DNA of 64,000 nucleotides from Ruditapes philippinarum (taxonomy: Eukaryota), in assembly GCF_026571515.1 (NCBI RefSeq), contig NW_026866227.1, positions 1-64,000 of the forward strand, in the 5' to 3' direction. Shown here piece after piece: positions 28,011 through 54,605 of the stretch (position 1 is its first letter; each line of letters starts with the position of its first letter). Under the pieces are notes generated by a model that was not told the DNA's origin, searched no databases, and worked only from the letters and a program-made list of their open reading frames with translations. Made by a program: the position numbers and the translations under genes.

Positions 28011-30795
28011 ATATTGAAGCTATATAAAGATAGGCACCCATACATTTAGGTGCAAAAGTAATAAACAATTCTAACACGACTTGCATTTTTTCCTATTGGG
28101 CATAAAATTGAAAGTGTGTTATTATGCAAGAAAATCTCTGTTGGCGTTCTATATTAAGATATGTGAAGTAATCATTTTATGTTCGATGTAACCACTAAAA
28201 ATGCGACCCCCTGAAAATAAGTACGGAAACAAATCAGGCGCAATTTAACGTAGCAGTTGTGTAAGAATCAAAATAATATATCCAAATAGGTGATTTTATT
28301 GCTTGATAAAATCAATGTTTGTTGAGATGTGCATCATTATATCACTCGGGCTACGCCCTCATGATATAATTCCTCGCATCCAAATAAAGTTGTTTTTTTT
28401 TAGTGAAAATCACTGATTTGGATATATCATTTCTTAAATATAAGCAGGGCATAGTCTAGTATAATCTATTTCTCAAATACAGTGTAATTAAAATGACTGG
28501 CCAAGTTAATTTTATAGAGAAATATTTTTTGTTATGGGTAATAATCTCAAATATTGTTCACTATACATCCTTTGTAATTTTCATATGTTGAATCTCTCAA
28601 TCAGACGCATCGTGGAATATAGGAATATATTAGATATAGTGTTTTATGAATGTTGAAATATTCGGTTGTTATTCTATTGACTATGTGATGGTATTTACCA
28701 GAATACATGTATATATAGCAGTGTTACATATAACCTGTCTTAACTAACCAATTATAGTACCACATTTTGTGTTCACTTGATATTTGATACAATTTTTATG
28801 CATTTATGTTGATTATTCAATAAAAGTATAAGTACCATTGGTATCTCTTTCTTATATATCCATATATAACATACCCCTTACAATGTTAAAGGTTTGACGT
28901 TTTGGTGTCTGTTAAGCATCCATTTATCAAACTTGCCCTTCACCTCTGAGTTTGAATCTGCTAATGACTTGGGATTCTTATATGTGAAGAAGTTCTCCAG
29001 CCAGCTTACAGAACATCGGTGGTTTTACTCTGATGCCCTTTTATGCCTGAAATAATCCATGGAGATGCACTCAAGGCCTTCCTCCACCAGTAAAGCTGGG
29101 AAGTTGCTGTTTTACCTCTACTGTATTGGTGCAATGTATAAACCAAAAGAAAAGAGAATGAAAAATTGTTTGAAGATCAAAAATGTTTAGATAAGGTAAT
29201 AGACCCATTTACGAAACTACATGTACTTCATTATTCTTGAAAAACTAAATCACTCCCCGGGGTGGGAACATTTCATATGTGCACAAGTCTTAAATTTCTC
29301 CTTTTTTTTATATAGAGGTCTTGAAGGCAATATCTCATTCCAAATATATTAGCTTGAAGCATTATAGTCTTCAAAGCAATGTTATATGCTAAATATATAA
29401 GCATTATACATTTTGTAGTTTTCCACTCATAAGTTTACATTAGTGTATGACCCACTGGGCGGCGGAAAGTGTAACGTTTAGACGACTTCAATTTGATGCT
29501 ACATGCTAAATATTTAAGCTGTGCTTGGCAGTTGAGAAACAAAATATTTCCAAAATCTGTACATTATAAAAATCTACATAAACTTAGGGACCTCCAGGGT
29601 GTGACCAATTTTTATGTCAGAGTGATGATTTATGTAACTTTTGTAGAGGTTTACTTAACAAATTCTACATGCCAAATATCTAAGCTTTGTGCATCATTGT
29701 TTCACAGTATAAAACATAAATGTATTTTCCTATACAAGTCTTTTGTTAATTAAGTAACCCCAGAGTCGGTCCAATATTGACCCTACCTGAAATCCCCACA
29801 AAGAATTAAGGTCCTTGTAGGTTACAACACACTAAATATTTAAGATAGCAACAAATAAAAGATGCCATCAGAAAAGATAAGTTTAAAGTTTTGTCAATTG
29901 CAGAAAGTATGGCATACCAGCAACTATTATATATTCCACTGACATGTTTGGGAAGCATACATATTTGCCTAGAGTGAATAACACATGCACAAAGTGTAAG
30001 CAAAATCTTTCTGTTCAAATTACAATTTTAACCAAGATCTTTAGAACATATAATTTTCTCGTCTAGTGGATAGGAACATGGATAAAAGATGACACTTGCC
30101 GATATGATTTGTTAAATTATTCAAAGGCTAACTAGGACTTACATCTTCAAACAATATTTTGTTCATATTTTACAAGTAATGTCTTCGTGAAAAATGACTA
30201 TTGGAGGGGCCCTAAAACACAGATTTTTAACTCTAGTAAAGTCAGGATAGCAGACACTCTGATAAATCCTTTATTTACACATTTATGTGCAACAAATAAT
30301 CAATAGACAGTTCAACAGAGAAGTTAATTAAATAATGGGCTGTTGAAATTTAAACCAATACTTTTGTATATCACAAATAGGGCAGTCATATTTACATATT
30401 CTAAGAAAGCTGTTCTGAGTGATGATAAAATAGACAGCTATTGAAGTTAATTTGCACAAAATATTTACCATACATAATGGATTATTGATAAAATAACAAC
30501 TTAACAAACTTTCATATAATCATAATCAACATTAATTTTTTAATTTGAATTTAGCATTATTAACATTAAATAACACCAAAATTATTTAAAAGATACTTTA
30601 TAATCAAATATTTTTATTTCTTATTTCATGATAAGGTTTATTGTTTCAGAAATCGTATAATTATTATCCCTTACAACGTTATAAACATTAACAAATAATG
30701 TCATTAAATCCTTAAAAATGTCAATTCCAATTTGTACAAAATAGTATAAATCAGACAGTTTTAATTGACATTAAATCTTCTACAGATATATAATA

Positions 30796-31266
30796 CTAGG
30801 ATGTTTCAGTGTGAAATGTTTTAGTTTCCTCCTGGCTCAGCGGAATATTTCCAGGAGGTGCGACGAAATAATCTTCATCACGTTTCACTGCATTTTGAAG
30901 AATAGATTTTTTACATCCACCTTCTGTCACAATATCATCACGAAGCAGGAGTTCACGATCCTCTAACACTGAATACATAGGTTCTACATCGTCTGTATTA
31001 ACCATATATAACTGATTTGCATATTCTATAGCACTCCGCAACCTGTCTACACCTGCTTTATTATTCACCTCCACTAATGACAGTCGTTCAAGATGATTAA
31101 TCATTTCATCTGTAAGGTCTGGGACAGGAGGAAGATTCTTTGGGTTTATTTCCTTCCACTGGGGTTCATTTGGTATCTTGGAGTTTAAACAACAAACTCT
31201 CTGACCAAAGTTAACACTGCATAATCTATTTAGTCTCAACACTTTGAAAGCTATATTAAGAGCCAT
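30796..31266 (-). CDS. GATC: Glutamyl-tRNA(Gln) amidotransferase subunit C, mitochondrial (156 aa, intronless CDS)
   Basis: HLERLSLVE, AIEYANQL, VNTDDVEPMYSVLEDREL.LRDD.VTEG and EDYFVAPPGNIPL are GatC motifs. The N-terminus MALNIAFKVLRLNRL is basic and lacks acidic residues, like a presequence. ATG context aaacaATGg. Confidence 0.93.
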   Translation of the reverse strand: MALNIAFKVLRLNRLCSVNFGQRVCCLNSKIPNEPQWKEINPKNLPPVPDLTDEMINHLERLSLVEVNNKAGVDRLRSAIEYANQLYMVNTDDVEPMYSVLEDRELLLRDDIVTEGGCKKSILQNAVKRDEDYFVAPPGNIPLSQEETKTFHTETS

Positions 31267-31354
31267 TGTTTCAATAAACAAATTAAACTGCACACCAAAA
31301 AAGATTAAGATAGCAAAGTACACAGTATCAATGTTTTCTTTTTTAAATGTGACC

Positions 31355-32942
31355 TTAACCTTCAATTTCTTCTTCTTTGGCTTGCATTGCTCTGATCTCT
31401 GCTTTACGTATTTCTACTTTTTCCTGAAATCCCTGAAATAAAATAAAAGAGGAAACATGTAATAACCAGTATGATTCAGGATAAGACACAGCAGCATTTG
31501 TTGTTGTTTTATCCTGCTACTGTCTATATCATCAGCTGGATAAAGCCTTGCCCGATAAACTTATCTATCTCCGGTCATTTAGTCACATGATGACGTCACA
31601 TGTTAAGCAGCAAAAAGAAACTGCAAATAGATGCTATTTTATTAGGGAAAAAGAAGAATGAAACCATTTAATTATTCTAAAAACATGATAAAAAGCAGGA
31701 TTAATCAAATACATGGTTGATGTCGGGATGGAGAAAGTTTATCCGGTTCACGGCGCCAGTGAATCTTGGCTCGCTAAAGCTCGACAAAATACACTTTCTC
31801 GCTCACCGGATAAATCTTCTCCATCCCTACATTTTTTCTATATATTTTGTTGGTTGGGTTTTACGACACACAAATACAGTATAGGTCATGTGGTAACTTT
31901 CCAGAGAAGATCTCAGGTGCCATTCTGTGCATTATTCCAGGCACAAACGGGCACCTGAGTAAAACCGACCACATTCTGAAAGTTAGAGCAGTAATTGTAG
32001 AACCAGACTAAATGCCCAACAAGGTATTCCATAATGGTTCTGATTAAATATATAAGAAATTCCTTGATAATAAAAACAACAAAAAATAAGTTCATTGTTT
32101 AAATTTTTGAAAACTAACCTAACAGTTTATTTAGTTTGATTTGAATATGGTTTAAACATATTTATTTAAACTCGATTGCGAAACAAGTTCTTTCAACTTA
32201 TATTAATCACTTTCGAGTCCGCTTCCTGGAACCAACCAGTACTGGTGTCATATGAAGAAACATGGCCATGACCGGATAAGAGCTCAAACCAATGATCCAT
32301 GGGTTGAGAGGCAGACACCTAACCCACTGCTCTCCTTTAGTTTGAATATCAGCTACAAATAAAATGTGTATATTGTAATAATATTATAATATATAATAAT
32401 ATTGTAACACATGAACCGACATTTGTATTTATAAAAATATACAGTTACACATGAATTACACATGTTAAAAACAGTCAGTTTAGTTCAACAGGTAGATTGT
32501 TCAATAAGTTGGAATATGAATCAGGGGACCAGGGTTCTATACCCAGAATGTGCATATAAATATCATTTTCTTTGTGATATTTCAAGAAATCTTATCCATG
32601 GTCAATTGTACTGTCCCTCTGCTCTGGCAGAAGTTACCAGTTCCTTGCAAAAGTGAAAGTACTAATACTGGTTAACTGCCTGACAGTATACCTAGGAACA
32701 ATGCAGTGGCTCTGATGAATTCAAAGTGGCTTACAACTGAACTACCAACACCACCAACACATATTTTAAAGAAATACTGTTTTTACATCTGAATTAACTT
32801 ACTGACATGTTAAAGTTTTATAAATATATCTTACAGCAAGTGGTTTATATATACTGTGTGTAAACTGAGATCCCAGTAACATTGAAAACACTGCAGCTGC
32901 TGTTACTGTTAAATATCTTTTCCATGAAACTCCAGCAGGCAT
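31355..32942 (-). CDS. UQCC6: BRAWNIN / UQCC6 / C12orf73 (sloth2-like) microprotein, 61 aa, exons 32942-32835 and 31432-31355
   Basis: MPAGVSWKRYLTVTAAAVFSMLLGSQFTHSIYKPLA|GFQEKVEIRKAEIRAMQAKEEEIEG*. MPAGV start, hydrophobic helix and H..Y[KR]P match human BRAWNIN as I recall it. GT-AG phase-0 intron. Confidence 0.88.
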
Positions 32943-32989
32943 ACTTCAATCAAACTGTAATATAAAATTAATTAATCATTATTTATCCA

Positions 32990-34080
32990 TAAGATGTATA
33001 TGTATCTAATGAACTATCTCTGAGATGAATATGTATCTAATGAACTATCTCTGAGATGTAAATGTATATTATGAACTATCTCTAAGACGTATATGCATCT
33101 AATGAACTATCTCTGAGATATATATGTATCTAATGAACTATCTCTGAGATGTATATATATCTAATGAACTATCTCTGATATTTATCTAATGAACTATCTC
33201 TGAAATATATATGAATCTAATGAACTATCTCTGATATGTATCTAATGAACTATCTCTAAAATATATTTGTATCTAATGAACTATCTCTGAGATGTATATG
33301 TATCAAATGAACTATCTCTGAGATGTACATGTATCTAATGAACTATCTCTGATATGTATCTAATGAACTATCTCTGAAATATATATGTATCTAATGAACT
33401 ATCTCTGAGATGTATATGTATCAAATGAACTATCTCTTAGATGTATATGTATCTAATGAACTATCTCCGAGATGTATCTAATGAACTTTCTCTGAGATGT
33501 ATCTAATGAACTATCTTCGAGATGTATAAAAATGAACTATTTCTTCGATGTATATGTATCTAATGAACTATCTTTTAGATGTATATGTATCTAATGAACT
33601 ATCTCTGAGATGTATCTGATGAACTTTCTCTGAGATGTATCTAATGAACTATCTTTGAGATGTATCTAATGAACTATCTCTGAGATGTACATGTATCTAA
33701 TGAACTATCTCTGATATGTATCTAATGAACTATCTCTGAAATATATATGTATCTAATGAACTATCTCTGAGATGTATATGTACCAAATGAACTATCTCTT
33801 AGATGTATATGTATCTAATGAACTATCTCTGAGATGTATCAAATGAACTTTCTCCGAGATGTATCTAATGAACTATCTTCGAGATGTATAAAATGAACTA
33901 TTTCTTAGATGTATATGTATCTAATGAACTATCTTTTAGATGTATATGTATCTAATGAACTATCTCTGAGATGTATCTAATGAACTTTCTCTGAGATGTA
34001 TCTAATGAACTATCTTTGAGATGTATCTAATGAACTATCTCTGAGATGTATATGTATCTTATGAACTATCTGTGAGATGC
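32990..34080. repeat. Minisatellite of 25/31-bp units (ATGTATCTAATGAACTATCTCTGAG[ATGTAT])
   Basis: Dozens of tandem copies in the intron between the SMIM4 and BRAWNIN exons. Confidence 0.95.
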
Positions 34081-34593
34081 AGTTGTAAGACCAACACATA
34101 AATGATAGTCAATCATCTAAATTTTGTGAAACTTCTTGCTACATGAGATTGTTTGTTTCAGTTCCTGTTGATATGTAACATCATACCATATTAAACATTC
34201 TACACAAATCGAAACATTAACATTGATGATATTACATGACTGTACTGTATCATTTGTCTGTATCATTTGATTTGACTGTATAAAGTTGTATTCCCATGAG
34301 TGTTTATAATGGTTGTATACTTTACACAACACAAGTGATACTATTCCGCAGAACGGCACACTTCTGTACTTTATACATTTTGTGCATATCACATCATATT
34401 TACCAGCCAAAAAGTCTATATCCTTTATATAACATGTATATTTATATTCATCATTCATAAAATAAAAACAGTTAATATACCCTGAAATTGATTTGTAATT
34501 CTTACTTTTTAACCAATCACAGAAAAGTAACTATTTCAAAGATATTTATAGATAATATAATAATATACAATATGGACATACCTAGTGGACAGT

Positions 34594-35746
34594 TTATTTT
34601 TGAAATTTTAGCTGTGCAAATACTTTTTCTCTTAGTTTTTCTCGTTCTATCTGTTTCCAAGCCTCTTCTTCTACCTGTTTCCTTGTGTATGTTTTATCTG
34701 CAAAAATAAACATCATTGTCAAGCCCCTATTACTGTAACCCTCGTTCTGCTTGAACCTACTGTGATTAACTTTTGTCATCAGTATCGAGCCAGGCCAGCC
34801 TGCACCTCCGTGTAGTCTTACAAGGTTCTAGTCTGTTAGCCAACTTCAAATTTTCATTCTAATATTACCAAAAATAGATAGGCAGTTCCAAAAATGGAAG
34901 CTGGCAAAGCCCAGGAAATTCAGCAAGCCAAAAGAGGTATTAAGGAAGTTAGATTTTTATATCTTTTTATATTTCAAATAAAATGTTTAAATATCAATAT
35001 TCGTAAATATAAGAAAACACAGGTAGACATAAGTCTTATGATTTCCTTTCATTTATATTGTTTTTTTCATAATTAAATATTTAGAATCATATCAATTTTC
35101 ATCCTTACGCTTCTACATATCTATATTTATACTGCCATACATTATAATAGATATTTCATAACACTTACAAGATAAAGTTGCTTTTTCCCTTGTTTTTGTT
35201 TCTCATTTATACAATTAAGGAACTATGACAAACATAAATGAAATTATAAAGCATTACTTCACTATTTAAGTAAAGGTATCTTGTGACAACTTCATCACAA
35301 AATTAATTAACTGATGCTTATTGATTTGTTTCAAGTGACTAGTCACACCACCAACAATATACAATGTACAGTAATTTATAAGGTCGATGTCATATGATGA
35401 CTTAGATTAAAGACAACCTCTTTGTGCATTGTCTGACATCACTAACCTTCCATAAGATAGCTGGATAGCTTCCTCACATGAAAGAGTCAATATCTGATGG
35501 GAATTCAACCCATAGCAGTTTGGGGCAAGTGTTTTAAGTCAGCCATCTTAAGCAATTAGCTACATACCAGTAGGTCACACTTATCTTAATATTTCAATAC
35601 TTACAAAAGTTGTGACCATTCACAGTCCACTTGATCATAGCCAATTCTAAAAGAGCTCCATAAACAAAGAAGAATGGCATAAACCTGTAAACTCCTAGCC
35701 TTCTCTTGCCTGGTACTTTATTTAAGATGTTTTGTATGAAATGCAT
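34594..35746 (-). CDS. SMIM4: SMIM4 / UQCC5 (sloth1-like) microprotein, 81 aa, exons 35746-35605 and 34697-34594
   Basis: MHFIQNILNKVPGKRRLGVYRFMPFFFVYGALLELAMIKWTVNGHNF|YKTYTRKQVEEEAWKQIEREKLREKVFAQLKFQK*. VPGK.R.G.YRF.PFFFV.G..E..MIK...FY..Y.RK matches human SMIM4 as I recall it. Phase-1 GT-AG intron. The start could extend to in-frame ATGs at 36336 or 36366. Confidence 0.92.
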
Positions 35747-35859
35747 TATCTCATTTTTCCATCCTGAAAAAAGAGACATTAAATAAAATATAATTAATGA
35801 TTAAATTGTCAAATTAAGTAATCAGTGTATCAAACAACGATTGGAACATGTGACAAAAA

Positions 35860-36295
35860 GTTGCCCAAACCAAGGCCCAACATCACCTTGCCCTAACCTG
35901 ACTGTAGTGACATCATCTTGCCCAAACCTTGGTCTGACATCACCTTACCTGAACCTTGGCCTGATATCACCTTGCCCGAAATTACCTTGCCCTAACCTTG
36001 GTCTAACATCATCTTGCCCTAACCTTGGTCTGACATCATCTTGCCCTAACCTTGGTCTGACATCACCTTGCCCTAACCTAGGTCTGACATCACCTTGCCC
36101 TAAACTTGGTCTGACATCACCTTGCCCTAACCTTGGTCTGACATCACCTTGCCCTAACCTTGGTCTGACATCACCTTGCCCTAACCTTAGCCCATGTCAC
36201 CTTGCCCTAACCTTGGTCTGACATCACCTTGCCCAAACCTAGGTCTGACATCACCTTGCCCACACCTAAGTCTAACACCACTTTGCCCTAACCGT
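35860..36295. repeat. 27-bp minisatellite CCTTGCCCTAACCTTGGTCTGACATCA
   Basis: About 15 tandem units in the first intron of the SMIM4 unit; explains ORF 35841-36221. Confidence 0.92.
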
Positions 36296-36317
36296 ACGGG
36301 CTAGCTAATATACGTAC

Positions 36318-36400
36318 CTGCCGTGAATGATGTCATACGAGGTCTCGCGTGGCACCTAAATGTCATGGCCCACTGTGGTCGGCGTTATTGATGTTTTACA
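36318..36400 (-). promoter_or_regulatory. Putative exon 1 / promoter of the SMIM4-BRAWNIN-GATC unit
   Basis: Small CpG-rich patch ending in donor GGCAG|gtacgt (exon ends at 36318); matching acceptor tttttcag|G at 35763. Confidence 0.55.
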
Positions 36401-37204
36401 GTTAAAAAGGCAATTTTAATGACGGTATTAATATTTCGATACTTTAATTGGTATAGAACAATGTTAAAAGAATTGTTTTATTGTAAAATGCACAAGAATT
36501 GATTTGGTCAAGTGTATTTGCAAGTGAAAAATAAGGTTAAATCAACTTATGTTATTCCGTTTAGGTTTCGTAACGGGTCTAAACTTTAATGCTGCATCAG
36601 ATGACAAACAAAAATGTTAAATAGCGGCTTATAAAGTTTTAGAAGCCAGAACTACTTAGCCCCACGATAATAAGAGACAACAGGATACACCAGTCTAGGA
36701 TAATATTATATATCATTAAATATAAAAAAATATGGTTTTATAATGTCTTTTCTCATGATTAGCAATGTCACACGCCGAAATTTTGTGACATGTCACAATT
36801 ACATGATCATTTTTTTCTTCCAAAAGTAATGTGGGCGAATCGGGTGTTGGGCGAATCAAGAGTGGGGCGAATCATTTCAAAACAAACAAATTTTACTGAT
36901 TCACATCGTTAGTAGCTATTTTATTCTATAAAGCTGGTTAAAGATAAGCATTTAAGTAGATAAAAAAACTTAAATTTAAATTATAATGAAAACTTATTGA
37001 AGTTATAGATCTAGATCTATTTCACGGTTATGTAAATACATGCCTTCTTCGACCTTCGCAGCGATTACCTCCCTTAGCAGGCAATTTTCCGGCTTTTTTC
37101 CGTCAGTCTTCCGACGATGGTCCGATTGATCCGAAGACTGCCGGAAAGGACCGAAAAGTTGCGATGCAGCCAATAGGTCAGACTCTCGTATTGGTTTTTC
37201 CAAG

Positions 37205-38170
37205 ATAGAATAGAATAGAATAGAATAACTTTTATTTCCAATCAAGGGTCATGTTAAATGACATGTGAATCACAATAATAATAATGAGATCAAAGATCAA
37301 ATAAAGACGTTAAAGAAACTAAAACTTGATTCGTATTATAGTAACAACAATAAACTTAAAGAAAAAACAAAAACAAAACAAACACAGCAAATGACAGGGT
37401 TTCGCGAACTATAATTAAACATCATAACTACATATATATATATGAATTGAAAATTACATTTTGTTTTTATTCTTCGAATAACATTTAATTTACACAAACA
37501 GATAGCGTATACCTGTTTTGTAACAAAACTGTACAATACANNNNNNNNNNNNNNNNNNNNNNNNNNNNNNNNNNNNNNNNNNNNNNNNNNNNNNNNNNNN
37601 NNNNNNNNNNNNNNNNNNNNNNNNNNNNNNNNNNNNNNNNNNNNNNNNNNNNNNNNNNNNNNNNNNNNNNNNNNNNNNNNNNNNNNNNNNNNNNNNNNNN
37701 NNNNNNNNNNNNNNNNNNNNNNNNNNNNNNNNTGTTTTCTCATTACCATTTCTGAGTTTAAAACAAGTAAAAATAAAATCTACAAATTGTTTTATGATTT
37801 TTTCATCTTCGTTGCTCATTAACCAAATGAATTTGCTTATTTCAGACATTTTTTCAAAGTTTAAATTCTTATCTTTTATTTCACTATATAAAATGCTGCG
37901 TTGACTAGTAAAAGCATTGCAAGCAGTAACAAAATGTAGCTCGTCTTCAACTTCATTTGAGTTGCAAACTTCGCAAACTCTTTTATCAGACTTGATTTTT
38001 TTTATATCTCCCAATCTCTATTTGTAATTTGTGAGAACTTATCCTTAACTTTGTAAAACAAGCTCTAATATTTTTATCTTTGATTACTGCTAAATAAGGT
38101 TCCCTACAAAAATTTGTTTTAAACAGTGCATAAGTACGTAGTTTACAAGGTATGACTAATTACCGTTCAC
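37205..38170 (-). mobile_element. 3' end of a non-LTR retrotransposon (CR1/L2-like), frameshifted, spanning the assembly gap
   Basis: LRTYALFKTNF..EPYL, LRISSHKLQIE and RVCEVCNSNEVEDELHFV..C; AATAAA plus (ATTCT)n tail at 37205-37235. Confidence 0.8.
37541..37732. other. Assembly gap (192 N)
   Basis: Run of n. Confidence 1.
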
Positions 38171-38739: not shown

Positions 38740-40010
38740 TTTAAACAGATCTTAATTATTCTCCTTGACTTCAGCTAAGCAATTTATAAAGTAAATCACC
38801 GTAAATTACTTCTTGCCTTTGAACAAGACAACGGTGTCCCAACAAAACTTCTCATGCATTTGGACACGCTCTTCCTAATAGGTAGGAGCACGGATCATAT
38901 TTACAATAGTAATATAAATCCGTGGTCGGAGTCAATTGGTTGTACTGGATGATGAACACTCTACAGAAGTCCCAGTAAAACTGTTGTCCCCCAACGCTCT
39001 GTCCTTGGCGCGCTCTGCTTTCTCATTTATATAAATGAACTTCCATCTACTGTCTTCAAGTCTCAAATTCGCCTCTTTGCAGATGACACCGTGGTCTACA
39101 TCAATATAAACTCTTCCCCAGACTCGCAATCCTTACAGGAGGCTCTCAGTAAGATGCAAATCTGGGAAAGGGAGTGGGACATGGAATTCAACCCCTTTAA
39201 AATGCAAGTCCTTCAGATCATAAAAAGTATTTCATGGCCAAGTTTTAACATCAAATACATAGGTCTAGTCCGCTCCACATATTTAAACTACAATACACAC
39301 ATTTCAAGAATAACATCAAATGCAAGCAAAACCCTACGATTCATTAAACAAACAAAAAAAAAGGAAAAAGTGAACCAATTTACTAATATATCCCAAGTAA
39401 GTGCATCAACTGTTTTGAGCCCTCGCACACAATCGAACACCCAAAAAATAAAGAAGGTCCAAAGACGAGTGATACGCTGGATGAAACGCGACTATTCCCC
39501 CATTGTCATCAGTATTAACAGTCATACGGGAAGATCTTGGCTGGCGTTCTCTCAAGCATCGCATATTTTAGACTTTAGACTCATTATGTTTTTCAAATTT
39601 ACCACAACCTAGTAGCCATGCACTAGCCATTGATATGCCAGCACTATTAAGTGTTGAGAATCGAGTACCGCTCAAGCCGGTGCTATGGGGCGTGGGGGAT
39701 ATTGCACTTATTCATTATCCCTCATTTACAGACTCAACCAAACCGAGTCTGCAATTTTCATGTAATTTTGTTGTGATTTATACTTCCGAGGGATCATTTT
39801 GTTTCCAGATTTGTATTACTACCTACATAAAACCCCCATCTAGGCTTACTAGACATATTCACCCCTTTCTCTTAGGAACATACAGATAACACCAGACTAC
39901 CCTATATAAGATCTTGTTTTCAACCACTGTATCACACTTTGGGACCAGATTTCCAGTAACATTTTGACCCTGCCTGATCTTAATCAATTCAAACAGGTGG
40001 TGACTGAGAA
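38740..40010 (+). mobile_element. Decayed LINE reverse transcriptase fragment
   Basis: LILLDFS*, FLIYINELP, IRLFADDTVVY, SLQEAL..MQIWEREWDMEFNP and KKVQRRVIRW, with stops and frameshifts; interrupted at ~39645-39810 by an element also present at ~44132-44300. Confidence 0.8.
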
Positions 40011-41238: not shown

Positions 41239-43833
41239 ATGGATAAACGGGTAAATATATAGTATAAAATTTAAAATAAATATATAAAAATCAAGTAAAC
41301 TAACATATTAAGAGTGAGTGTTTAAAATATTCAAAAGGTTTGAACAAATAAACAGTTTCTTTTACAACTCTCTCTTATTTTATATATTTTCATTTTGATA
41401 ATTGTTTCTGAGATTGTTTTTTAAAAATCATGTAATCAAACTTAAGCGTACCCTGTCATATTTTAGCAGCTACTTTATATGTAGAAACACTTAACATCCA
41501 GGCTTTAAGCAAAATAAAAAACTATAAAAAATTCGATAATTATCTTAGAAGCGGCCTTGTTCTTATACACTCAGGAACCTGAGAAGAATGAAGGTAACCC
41601 TGAAAAGAATATAAAACACTCTGACCAGAAAGATAAAGTTGTTAAAAGAAAAAACAGAGAAGAAGATAGGAAAAAGCGTTCAAAATTACCAAGTCAAGAT
41701 AACTTTAATGAAGGGAATGGCAATAAAACACCCCAGCAAGAGTTGAGCAGTGAAGACAACGGGGATGATGATGAGGAGGAACAGTCAAATTTGAGTAACA
41801 CAGGAATAAGAGATGTATGGCAAAGATCAGAATTAAGTGGCGGCGAAGAGATTAACAATGAAAGGAAATATTTAAAGCTGAGTAACAAAGCAAAATGCAC
41901 TGAATGGCAATATCCAGAGCTAAGCGATGGGTATAGTGATGTTGAGGTGAAAGGATCAGAGTTCAGTAACAAATCGAATAGAAATGAATGGCCACAACCA
42001 GAGTTGAACAATCGAGAAAATGACAATGAAGGGGAAGATTTAAAGTTAAGTAACAAAGGGAATGACATTGAAGGACAAAAGCCGGTTTTGAGCGTTAGTG
42101 TCAGTATTGATGAGGGAAAGAAGTCACAGGTAGATGGTGAAGCGAATGGCAATAAGGACAATTGCCATAAGTTATTCGATAAAGACAGTCATCGTGATGA
42201 GAACACGTATAAGTTGAGTGGTGAGAGCAGTGATGGTGTGGAACAAAACGTGAGTTATGGCTACGATGGCAATAAACGTCAACGGCCAGAATCGAGGGGT
42301 GATGAAGAACAACACAAACAACTAATTGATAAAGGACAAGAACAGCATCCAAACTCGAGTGACGGGGACAATAGTAATGAAAGAAAAAGGCCAGTGTTGA
42401 GCTGCAGAGGTGTTGACAATGAGGGAAGACAGACACCACTGAGCTTCAAATCAGATAAACACGAAAAAGAAAATAATGACGGAGAGATTCGTTGTGAAGA
42501 CGATATTGATAATCATTTAAAATTAAGAAATGAAAACGACAGTGATGAACAACGCAACTCATTTTCAAATGACAAATGTATGTCGGGTAATGGTTTCAGA
42601 AAATTAAAAGAAAACAGCGATGATTGTATACTTTACAAGCGTAGTTATGATTCACCATCTTCAAATGAAACCTTTCTGTATACTCGCATTAATAATAATG
42701 TAACTTCTAGGGAAAGCATGCCCCAAAATAACGAGTCAGGTAAAGAAAATATTACACCTGAGCCTCGCATTGGATTATTTAAGGTTCATGACAATGACAA
42801 TATGAATGATTCTGTAACGGGCAAAGAAGAATTGCACATACACATATCTTTTGATAGTGGAACCGATAATCATAGTCGAGAAAGCGAAACAATCCCTAAA
42901 GAGAGAATAGATCGAAATAATAATTATAGGGAATCTGGAAGTATAAATGTGCCATTAGAAATATGTTCCGAAAGAAGTGAACATCAGCATCAAATGGAAT
43001 CATTAAAGGAACCACCCGAGTTTGACAATGACAGTCTTCTTCAATCTTTTAGAAATTACTCAGACGTATCATCATCGAACAGAGATGCCAGCTCTTCAAC
43101 ACAGTTTGATAGCGGGATAGATACAGACAGCCAAGGAAGCGAAACAAATCCTAAAGATATACTTGTAATAGAACGAGTCAACAACAGAATTCATTACCAT
43201 AGCCAGCATTTACATCAATTGAGTGTTAACCCTGATGAAGATATTGATATCAGCACTAATGAAACAAAACGAATGACAATTAATGAAAGAAACGTTGAAA
43301 GATCTGGTAAATCCATACATTTAAACACTCATGAAACAGAACCAAAGACGATTAATGCAGATATCAACGTTAAAACCGACGAATTAATGAAAGTGGACAT
43401 ACATGAAACAACACCAAAGACACTTAATGTAGATGTCAATGTTAAAACTGACGAACTAATGAAAATGGACACACATGAAACAAAACCAAAGACAATTAAT
43501 GTGAAAAACGATGTAAGACCATGTACAAATTCTAATAAAAGCACTCATGAAAACAATCAAAATTCTAAAGATGTAAATGAAACTGCCCCTCTAGGGACAA
43601 ATGACGAAAATAATCTTTTGTCTAGAAATACACCAAATTTTGACGACAGACTAATGAATGATAGAACAGAATTATGTGAAAGTCCATTTCACGGCAGTGA
43701 AAATGAAAGTGGCCAATCGGATTCTGAAGTTGTAAATGATAATGAGGCTAATGAAATTGTACCAATGTCTCAAATTCAGAACGAAAATATGGAACAAAAT
43801 TCTAGAAAAGGAACTGATCTGGATCCACACTGA
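41239..43833 (+). CDS. Uncharacterised acidic, N/S/D/E-rich disordered protein (~756 aa), exons 41239-41250 and 41575-43833
   Basis: 2.26-kb open frame in AT-rich DNA; ATG GAT AAA CGG|gtaaat joins in phase 0 to cag|GAA CCT; TATA-like motif at 41175; AATAAA directly after the stop; internal 28-aa and 24-aa repeats. Confidence 0.7.
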
Positions 43834-46340: not shown

Positions 46341-47996
46341 ATGAGTGGAATACAAGAATTAGAACGAGACAATCGTCGTACTGTCACCGATCCACATGGA
46401 TGTCATGGTATGGTGGTAGCTGACTCAGGAAGTCGTAATGCCCTACAATCGTCTTATCATGGTACAACTACCGTTGAAACTAATGATGAATCTAAGCTGA
46501 ATCTTGAGCGAAAATGTGTGCCACTAAAATTCGAAACATCATCATGGTGTGATGAAAGGAAAAGGGAACTTCAATCTACTGAAGGTAAGTTTCAACTCAA
46601 TCTCATTACCCCTGCTAATGTACTTAGTCTTTTGATAGTATGTTTTATTAGATTTGTTGCAGTCTCTTTATGACACACAATTGTTTTAAGTAAAAGAACT
46701 AATCAAGATTAGAGAGGACCAAATACTTATTAACTTGTTACACAAATTAATTCACTTATAACAAAATCTAATGTCGGTATTAAAATGAACCCATAACAAA
46801 TAACATGCCACTAAGTACACATTCAACTTTGTTTTCTAGATGAAAGACCTTTACGCGATTTCCTGTGTCGAGCCATTTCAAAGAACGCACGAATGATTGC
46901 CGTTGACCTAGATGTGTCCAATTTGTTAGACCATCTTTTATCCAAATACTGCATTACTGAAGATGAATACAACGAGCTCCGTTCTTTGGATAAGTCCAAG
47001 AATCTTGCTAGAACCGTATTAGGATTAGTTTTAAGAAGGGATTGTCGTACACTGCTGTCCTTCATTGACATCATTTTCGAGTGTGGTGAGCATATAGCTA
47101 GTAGTATCACGGTCGCATATGATAGCATCGTCAACAATGCAGACTCCTCACGTGCTGAAACAGGACGATCATGCTCGCACTGCCTTCTGCTAGAAAGGAC
47201 GGAGCCTATTTTAATTATCGATTCACTGATAAGCCATGACTATGAAATGTTTTTGCCATTTTACGAACAAGTTGCAAACTGCAGGGATAACGTTCCAGAG
47301 AAGAGAAAGGAATGGTGGGATAACTTTATGACGCATGTCATGAAGGTCGAGGCTTCAGCAGAGATGACACAACTAATTATAGAAGCTCTAGAAGAGTGTA
47401 GATTCCACTCGGATATTATAAGGAACCTGCGTGAGGACCAAAGCAAAAATGTTAACAGCTTTCTGTGCACACATATCTGCAGTGTGGTTTTGAACTCTAG
47501 TCCTCGGGCTGAAGACGAAGAACATGGACCACGGATGCAAGAATTAAAAGTTGATTATGAAAACACCAACTTGAGAATGTTTCAACGAACAACAATATCG
47601 TCTAAGGTCAATGTGAAGAAGATGCACCATCTAAAATCATTTGATTTGGAGAATCTGCCTGACGACCAAAGACACGCTGCCAACCGTTTCATGTATAGAT
47701 ACACACACAAGTCCAGTCGAAGTACTGAAGAAAACATAAATGAACCACGGATGGAAGAATTAAAAGAATTTGATTATGAAAATACTAATCTAAAGATGAT
47801 TCAAAACGCAACGGGGTCGTCTACAGTCACGGCAAATGATATGCAAGAGCTGATACCGTTTGAGTCAGGGTCGGGTGACAGAATGGGGCATCGTTTTGAC
47901 GACAGCAGGAATAGACAGGGTGGTGAAAACGCAAATACTAGGGAAGGTGATCACAATGAGTTAACGCAGTTAACACTTATTTTTGTATTTTGGTAA
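46341..47996 (+). CDS. Death-fold (tandem CARD-like) protein, exons ~46341-46584 and 46840-47996 (~466 aa); 5' end uncertain, possible extra exon from ATG 45890
   Basis: G|gtaagt donor and ctag| acceptor in phase 1. IAVDLDVSNLLDHLLSKYCITEDEYNELRS...ARTVLGLVLRRD..LLSFIDII fits a CARD helix pattern. A second, weaker unit reads TEPILIIDSLIS...WWDNF...LIIEALEEC. Confidence 0.7.
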
Positions 47997-53112: not shown

Positions 53113-54605
53113 ATGACGGAATCTAGGACAAAGTACAGTCGATGGATGTCCGACTTACCACAATGGATAACCTTTGTACCGATCAGTTGTTTAGCAATTC
53201 CAGGTTAGTCTGTTTTTATGTCAACATGGTAGCGTTATTGTCCTTTTTTTTCTTGTAAACATCTTTACAATTTTTCAATGTCTCTTTTTAATATCTTTGT
53301 AACATGCAGTGTTCTGTGTGCAGTAATATTACGAAATACTTTAATATTATCTTTATTGTTATAAAACTTTTTAAGGGCGGCCTCCATGACCGTGTGATAA
53401 AAGTAACATCCCTCGCTGCTGTGGGTTCGAATCCCATCTTAGACTTCGTGTATTGAACCTATCCAGATAATGAACGAACGGTCGACGCCGTTCGTGCCGG
53501 AAGTAATGTACAGAGAGACACCTGTTGTCTTTATCCATCCGTAAAGATATTGCCTTTTCATTATAGTGCATTAATTGTCTATGTGGCTTAAACCCCGATC
53601 AGGTAATACATTATATACTTAACTAAAGTGTGCACTACTTGCAAGTGTATTATTGAAACGGTGATCGTTCTGTCTCTGTTTGACATTTAGTAAAATGCAC
53701 TCATGGTTGTTTGAAATATTTTAACAGGGTCCCATAATTCCGGCACAAGTGACCTTGACCTGACCCTTGGAACAGCTGTCGACCAAACTTCCGGCGTTAG
53801 AAGGTTAGGAAACACGTGTTGCGGCCAGCGTGTTGTGCACAGATGGTCCAAGACTCAGAATCTCAGCATTATGGAACAATTGCACGCGGGAGTTAGATAT
53901 TTTGATTTCCGGGTTGCTGTTCATCCAGACACCATGGAGTTTAGATTTGTTCACGGGCTATATGGCGGTCTGGTACCACTAGCTTTACAAGACATTAACA
54001 CATTCCTAAATCAAAATCCATACGAAGTTGTCATCTTAGATTTTAATCATTTCTATAACATGAACCAAACTGCGCATAATATGCTTCTTACTGAAATACG
54101 TAATGTTTTTGGACAAAAGTGCGTGCCTCCACCATTCTCAATCCCGAACTATAAAATGTGGGGTACAAGTCTTGCGGCGCTATGGCAGACACCATACCGG
54201 GTTATAGCTATATACCACGATGACAACATCATTCAGTACCCGGAAATCTGGACTGCGAGCACGATAGAAGCCCCGTGGGCAAACACAAGTGATATAGCTG
54301 CTCTGATAAGATTTCTAGAATCAAATTACTCCAACAAAATGAGGTATAAGAATGACTGTCTATATTCCTGGCAGGGTTTACTCACTCCAAATTCTAAGAA
54401 TATAGCGTTTAATCTCGGCTCTAGTTTAGAGGAGAGAATGGCGTCTAAAGCTACCCGCGAGTTTGTAAAATGGCTGAACGGCGGGAAAGTTCCAGGACCT
54501 CAGGGTATTAACATATGTAATGCTGACTTTGTAGAGAAACACAACTTTATTCAGACAGTTGTCGGTCTCAATCAATATATATCGGAAGTACCATCTACAT
54601 TTTAA
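53113..54605 (+). CDS. PI-PLC X domain-containing protein (PLCXD family), 322 aa, exons 53113-53203 and 53728-54605
   Basis: WMSDLP...LAIPG|SHNSG, WSKTQNLSIMEQLHAGVRYFDFRV, FVHGLYG, FLNQNPYEVVILDFNHFY and INIC.ADFV; both catalytic-type His present; phase-1 GT-AG intron. The paralogue (PLCXD1/2/3) cannot be assigned. Confidence 0.92.

Follow-up and report, generated by a model that had tools for sequence, protein, structure and literature searches.

How many proteins are drawn from one transcript at the SMIM4-BRAWNIN locus of the clam Ruditapes philippinarum? The question is raised by the DNA analysed here, a stretch of 64,000 nucleotides (nt) of contig NW_026866227.1 (positions 1 to 64,000, hereafter the window), in which SMIM4/UQCC5, BRAWNIN/UQCC6 and GATC, the gene for subunit C of the mitochondrial Glu-tRNA(Gln) amidotransferase, follow one another on the minus strand. 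GATC was missed by a first-pass annotation of the window; the SMIM4-BRAWNIN unit continues past BRAWNIN into this third gene. We tentatively propose, with a confidence slightly short of even, that heterodont clams have a three-protein nuclear operon without trans-splicing, in which the SMIM4-BRAWNIN bicistron captured the putative only copy of the essential GATC gene in its 3' untranslated region (UTR). In such an operon ribosomes would pass at least 11 upstream AUGs, and a single mRNA would tie the supply of mitochondrial Gln-tRNA to assembly factors of complex III in several clam lineages.

Exons and proposed transcript of the SMIM4-BRAWNIN-GATC unit

The SMIM4 protein (81 amino acids, aa) is encoded by a first coding exon at 35605..35763, with its acceptor at 35763, its ATG at 35746 and a match to PF15114 (E 1.5e-19), and by a second one at 34582..34697; the Logan protein P0002 (PF15114, E 1.1e-13) reads through their join (35605/34697). 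The SMIM4 stop codon (TAA, 34596-34594) is followed by a 12-nt linker half ending with an in-frame TAG at the donor (TAG/gtatgt). Next comes a GT-AG intron of 1627 nt (32955..34581, acceptor ttacag/), the use of which is deduced from contig arithmetic. BRAWNIN exon 1 (32835..32954; PF14990, E 2.2e-17) opens with the other 12-nt linker half and the ATG at 32942. After an intron of 1402 nt in phase 0 (31433..32834), the C-terminal codons of BRAWNIN and its TAA (31357-31355) form the opening part of the last exon (31355..31432), and the predicted spliced protein of 61 aa equals the Logan protein P0001.

All the positions that the first-pass annotation had given for the SMIM4 stop, the exon end at 34582, the acceptor (32955/32954), the BRAWNIN start and the two 12-nt distances are correct in the sequence, and the intron that it had put at about 1.6 kb has the 1627 nt measured here. 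The joined linker is 24 nt long and in frame, and the TAG and TGA said to bar a SMIM4-BRAWNIN read-through fusion are present in it. The identities and the order of the two genes were also right, but the span proposed for the unit was too short, because it omitted SMIM4 exon 1 (35763-35605), BRAWNIN exon 2 (from 31432) and GATC.

The GATC open reading frame (ORF; 30796..31266, 156 aa, intron-free; PF02686, E 1.9e-10) shares the last exon with the BRAWNIN stop and starts 88 nt after it. The linker between the two (31267..31354) contains neither an AUG nor an AATAAA or ATTAAA hexamer, and has an acceptor-like AG at 31288. We found 114 homologues of this protein, the nearest named relative being that of Mercenaria mercenaria (78%). 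Two AATAAA hexamers (30642 and 30618, within 30613..30642) likely mark the 3' end of the whole unit; the depth of run X23 drops from 38 to 2 from bin 30660-30749 to bin 30480-30569, and X1 record 1 continues to 30308. The mRNA modelled from 35763 to 30620 measures 1208 nt.

Four of 24 listed runs (X1, X2, X21 and X23) were aligned to positions 30300-32990 only, so that the letters of the 34582/32954 junction fall outside the stretch covered; X1 and X2 are presumed to be RNA, which is a guess, though their contigs are spliced. The joint 31432/32835 was found in 13 X23 reads, one X1 contig and one X2 contig (three of the four runs) and in none of X21, and BRAWNIN exon 1 was likewise covered in X23, X1 and X2 and not in X21. 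X1 record 4, of 581 nt, aligned without gaps to 31247-31431 and then to 32834-32956, with 273 letters beyond; X2 record 15 extended 267 letters past 32956. The exon model predicts 273 letters past 32956 and 581 nt from 31247 to the acceptor at 35763, which is exactly what X1 record 4 contains. Both alignments extend 2 letters beyond the acceptor and no further, and the upstream exon must therefore end in AG preceded by a non-C letter, an ending that only one of the four donor-like sites 3' of the SMIM4 stop has, the one at 34581. The exact fit of the 581 nt and the AG overlap at the acceptor indirectly bear out the earlier claim that SMIM4 and BRAWNIN share an mRNA in the order known from the fly, and the splice from 34582 to 32954 is almost certainly in use. 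X1 record 4 is a spliced contig that extends from BRAWNIN across the linker and takes in the first 20 nt of GATC, and we consider it highly probable that a mature mRNA holds the SMIM4, BRAWNIN and GATC ORFs.

Calls of GATC proteins agree with a continuous last exon. Four of the five members of the R. philippinarum GATC cluster, on contigs of 1134-1466 nt, were called with an N-terminal extension into the linker, and three of these extended calls reach the last codons of BRAWNIN.

The introns of the unit carry repeats. A tandem array with a period of 31 (32992-34079, 1088 nt, 38 copies) lies in the linker intron, and a second one, with a period of 27, lies at 35861-36293, also in an intron of the unit. 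The BRAWNIN intron contains dispersed repeats (31470-32369), likely short mobile elements, on which the coverage of all four runs is very deep, with peaks at 31920-32009 and 32100-32279.

The same gene order in relatives

Metagenome contigs were scanned with an alignment of 37 GATC sequences, which yielded 57 loci, and BRAWNIN was found upstream of GATC on the same strand in three of them (L001, L002 and L003). The other 54 loci, of which 26 have at least 1000 nt upstream, 12 have at least 3000 and many are near duplicates, gave no BRAWNIN or SMIM4 match; a SMIM4 profile search matched in the window and L002 only. L002 is genomic, contains all three genes by Pfam and has the same four intron sites as the window. 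Its SMIM4 stop, a TAG, abuts the donor, the linker that follows is of 0+22 nt and out of frame, and the linker between BRAWNIN and GATC is of 254 nt. L001 (1014 nt) comprises the end of an intron, the last exon of a SMIM4-like gene, a linker of 45 nt, the whole BRAWNIN ORF, a linker of 109 nt and GATC; downstream of the SMIM4 stop it is free of introns, this stop and the BRAWNIN start being contiguous, and it may be a part-spliced RNA or DNA in which two introns were lost. L003 shows a BRAWNIN-like last exon only (a weak match, E 0.005), 112 nt before GATC, SMIM4 being outside the view.

The 12+12 nt linker, for which a comparison across relatives had been suggested, is not kept in L002 or L001, and we rejected its symmetry as a conserved spacing and regard it as incidental. 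A SMIM4-BRAWNIN read-through or fusion protein was also rejected: in-frame stops prevent it in the window and L001, and the reading frame prevents it in L002. Because the SMIM4 stop of L002 is a TAG that abuts the donor, the in-frame TAG at the window donor is probably, to judge from this comparison of sequences, the ancestral SMIM4 stop, which lost its role when a TAA arose four codons upstream of it.

A tree built from 34 GATC proteins grouped the window with Mercenaria (96/86), L001 with Mactra (99/99) and L003 with Mya (99/96), and the proteins of the window, L001, L002 and L003 all fell within a 19-row clade (100/99), apart from those of Mytilus, scallops, Potamilus, Solemya and gastropods. 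A published gene model of Mactra antiquata (KAL4226605.1, P0171; 109 aa), named SMIM4, contains both PF15114 and PF14990; it and the GATC of this species (KAL4226604.1) have consecutive accessions, each on a contig of 41,948,490 nt. The fused model is probably a prediction error; it may also be a real fusion. In Neodiprion sawflies, the models P0146 and P0201-P0203 join a SMIM4-like N-terminus to BRAWNIN, which suggests linkage and mis-annotation of the pair in these insects as well.

Contig sizes provided circumstantial evidence of linkage. Four of 15 BRAWNIN contigs matched a clam-clade GATC contig in nt size (23 sizes) and none of the 15 matched 55 others (shifted-length null 1e-5), where the 15 stand for the 13 clusters picked by likeness to clam proteins from 76 matches, plus P0001, and one of the four matches is R. 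philippinarum itself. Such a match can arise by chance: L054 is also of 1499 nt and yet carries a split GATC.

Upstream of SMIM4, a two-part motif at 37110..37128 (minus strand), which is also present upstream of SMIM4 in L002 (266-283, plus strand), is a candidate promoter or first-exon motif. The sequence around the window copy is CG-rich and has CCAAT-like boxes. The pattern was drawn post hoc from the window and L002 themselves, and a chance control is therefore circular; the motif was absent from 56 of the 57 GATC loci and was not among the blastn hits.

Proposed translation of GATC, alternatives and possible origin

According to the model that we favour, one promoter would drive an mRNA that is about 1.2 kb long after splicing and has SMIM4, BRAWNIN and GATC in this order on one strand, from which the three proteins would be made separately, likely by leaky scanning plus reinitiation. 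Most ribosomes would make SMIM4. Short upstream AUGs just 5' of its start would divert some of them past SMIM4 and onward to BRAWNIN, and a small remainder would reach the GATC start, the sole full-length start in optimal context of the window model, resulting in a graded output. Two upstream AUGs precede SMIM4 in the window, at 35762 (3 codons) and 35754 (2 codons, with a stop overlapping the SMIM4 start); in both loci with that exon (the window and L002), AUGs were found within the 14-17 nt that precede the SMIM4 start, and the one of L002 opens an ORF of 42-44 codons that overlaps SMIM4. The GATC AUG has a purine at -3 and a G at +4 in all four loci (the window, L001, L002 and L003), and the window SMIM4 and BRAWNIN starts each have the purine at -3 without the G at +4.

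Several observations weigh against this model. The three ORFs were never seen on one molecule, assembled contigs can merge overlapping transcripts, X1 record 4 includes just 20 nt of the GATC coding sequence, and X21, with a depth of 0-3 on all exons, is uninformative. The SMIM4-like exon of L001, taken alone, has no Pfam match, and the SMIM4 start of L002 is in optimal context, unlike that of the fly. The window model has 11 AUGs before the GATC start (7 of them before BRAWNIN), five with a purine at -3, and no depletion of AUGs is visible upstream of GATC in it; the BRAWNIN-GATC linker contains four AUGs in L002 and one in L001, and in L003 an AATAAA lies 3 nt past the BRAWNIN stop. The fold of the window linker is unremarkable (z -0.06) and no Rfam match was found in 30000-37540, on which grounds an IRES-like structure in the linker was rejected. 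Pure leaky scanning past these 11 AUGs, of which five have the purine at -3, would yield little GATC, from which we infer a combination of leaky scanning and reinitiation. Upstream ORFs of more than 55 codons are predicted to block reinitiation, with exceptions noted (PMC4705651); as far as that source goes, the prediction would apply to SMIM4 and BRAWNIN both.

The AUG counts of the window and of the L002 linker and the AATAAA of L003 would equally be expected if the long transcript were functionally bicistronic, GATC being its 3' UTR and the GATC protein being made from a short transcript with its own start, in the BRAWNIN intron or the linker, and the same poly(A) site as the long one. The raw depth of X23 (mates summed), which was 24-58 on GATC and about 10-18 on the linker and BRAWNIN, that is 2-4 times higher on GATC, also speaks for such a separate transcript and against the three-ORF model; the rise toward GATC fits such a transcript and a 3' bias alike. 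However, this rise was gradual, from 31290 to 30750, and no start site was found among the rows listed for X23, nor any site with many molecules starting or ending among those listed for the four runs over 30300-32990. Contig depth was flat in X1 (70 on BRAWNIN and 78.5 on GATC) and X2 (73 and 63), the unique parts of the BRAWNIN intron had a depth of 0-0.4 in X23, the 88-nt linker has little room for a promoter, and the close spacing of BRAWNIN and GATC recurs in four of four loci. On balance, a separate GATC transcript seems unlikely, and GATC is probably translated mainly from the three-ORF mRNA.

A precursor processed to single-gene mRNAs seems less likely still. It would require cis-splicing or spliced-leader trans-splicing into 31288/31287, which is 21 nt before the GATC start, or into 32954, together with intronic polyadenylation at the AATAAA that overlaps the SMIM4 stop codon (34593..34598, 12 nt before the donor), a putative signal that could permit a SMIM4-only mRNA. 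Acceptor-like sites are present in the BRAWNIN-GATC linker of three of the four loci, and assembled contigs lose rare forms; a paper on spliced leaders has no mention of molluscs, which is neutral evidence. Nevertheless, no joint at 31359-31288 was found among those listed for the four runs, X1 record 4 is unbroken over both 31287 and 32954, the depth of X23 is level across 31287 (12 and 10), and all four extended GATC calls read through this position. As the main form, the 72-nt intron 31359-31288 was rejected, because there was no such joint and the end of P0001 is the one expected without this splice. As for the upstream half of the unit, the reads were placed on 30300-32990, which leaves room for SMIM4 and BRAWNIN to be separate neighbours, the 273 letters coming from another upstream exon and the splice-site match being due to chance. 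This is very improbable given the exact 581-nt fit with its AG overlap, the same intron site in L002, the contiguous stop and start in L001, and the Mactra gene model that joins the two genes.

As a rule, a stop codon with an exon junction downstream triggers junction-dependent decay. The BRAWNIN intron begins 132 nt after the SMIM4 stop and nothing is spliced 3' of the BRAWNIN stop; by this rule, the mRNA would escape decay only if BRAWNIN is translated early. An intron-free GATC in the last exon would leave no exon junction after the BRAWNIN stop, so that, under the same rule, its presence would cause no junction-dependent decay.

In the three-ORF model, an old SMIM4-BRAWNIN bicistron would have acquired GATC in its 3' UTR in a clam (heterodont) ancestor, perhaps as a retrocopy. 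Of the 57 loci, 31 have a split GATC, with most breaks near profile positions 48 and 104, 16 have it in a single segment and 10 have a partial one; it is intron-free in the window, L002 and L003. The GATC isoforms and models of Mytilus diverge at one point near residue 30, which implies an intron there, and this point is uninterrupted in the window. A single-segment GATC is also found in 13 of the 54 loci without BRAWNIN, several of which may be transcripts, and this counts against the retrocopy step. On these gene structures, the chances that GATC joined the unit by retroposition appear about even.

The rest of the window contains, on the plus strand, a frame of 393 codons with a CARD domain (46815-47996; PF00619, E 5.7e-7) and a low-complexity frame of 771 codons (41518-43833) that had no Pfam match and may belong to the same gene. 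A frame of 296 codons (53715-54605, plus strand) has a weak match to the PI-PLC X domain (E 0.0025, below the cut-off), a reverse transcriptase fragment (38956-39612, plus strand; PF00078, E 2.3e-10) likely comes from a decayed retrotransposon, and a gap of N lies at 37541-37732.

Comparison with known systems

GatCAB makes mitochondrial Gln-tRNA, and with the addition of GATC the clam unit is a candidate natural tricistronic animal mRNA, composed of unrelated families and kept in several clam lineages. Its third ORF, a housekeeping gene behind 11 AUGs, would allow the reach of scanning ribosomes to be tested cleanly, and the presumed insertion of an intron-free gene in the last exon suggests a route by which eukaryotic polycistrons may grow. 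The arrangement would also explain annotation errors, namely the fused SMIM4-BRAWNIN model of Mactra and the GATC calls extended at the N-terminus. A literature search, with most subscription journals outside its reach, found no published report of a three-gene SMIM4-BRAWNIN-GATC unit.

In the trans-spliced operons of nematodes and tunicates, several genes share a promoter and the precursor is cut to single-gene mRNAs. The clam differs from them in that its spliced contigs are unbroken through the candidate acceptors, and trans-splicing as the main form at 31287 was not encountered, though a minor form may occur. An insect tricistronic mRNA is reportedly decoded by context-dependent scanning, to go by the title of the study by Kanamori et al. 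of 2010; as in the clam, three proteins would be made from one animal nuclear mRNA by scanning, but the genes are unrelated to those of the clam unit.

The closest likeness is to the fly pair sloth1-sloth2, which are SMIM4/UQCC5 and C12orf73/BRAWNIN/UQCC6 and are described as bicistronic (PMC9681215). The clam has the same two families in the same order, as separate ORFs close together. In the fly, reporter output of the second ORF rises on weakening the first start, which indicates leaky scanning (PMC9681215). The fly linker is of 5 nt and frameshifted, whereas that of the window is of 24 nt, in frame and split by an intron, and those of the relatives are of 22-45 nt; in addition, the clam unit includes GATC, a third ORF, which belongs to an unrelated family. 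The same report describes a similar SMIM4-BRAWNIN arrangement in a choanoflagellate, the sea squirt and the lamprey, and a split one in jawed vertebrates (PMC9681215), and this linkage implies that the bicistron predates protostomes. The first-pass annotation was right about the fly order, but its suggestion that the bicistron is ancestral in protostomes was too narrow and had already been published in this broader form. The words "GATC" and "mollusc" have 0 occurrences in the main text of that report (PMC9681215). The SMIM4-BRAWNIN part of the clam unit is a further member of the published bicistron, and the addition of GATC appears to be new.

GatC itself has a precedent in Drosophila, where it is reported to be co-transcribed with pol gamma-beta (POLG2) (PMC6926476). 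The likeness is that GatC lies on a transcript with another mitochondrial gene; the partner and the lineage differ. On the evidence of that source, GatC likely entered a polycistronic unit twice independently, in the fly and in the clam, which hints that some mitochondrial genes repeatedly tolerate such positions.

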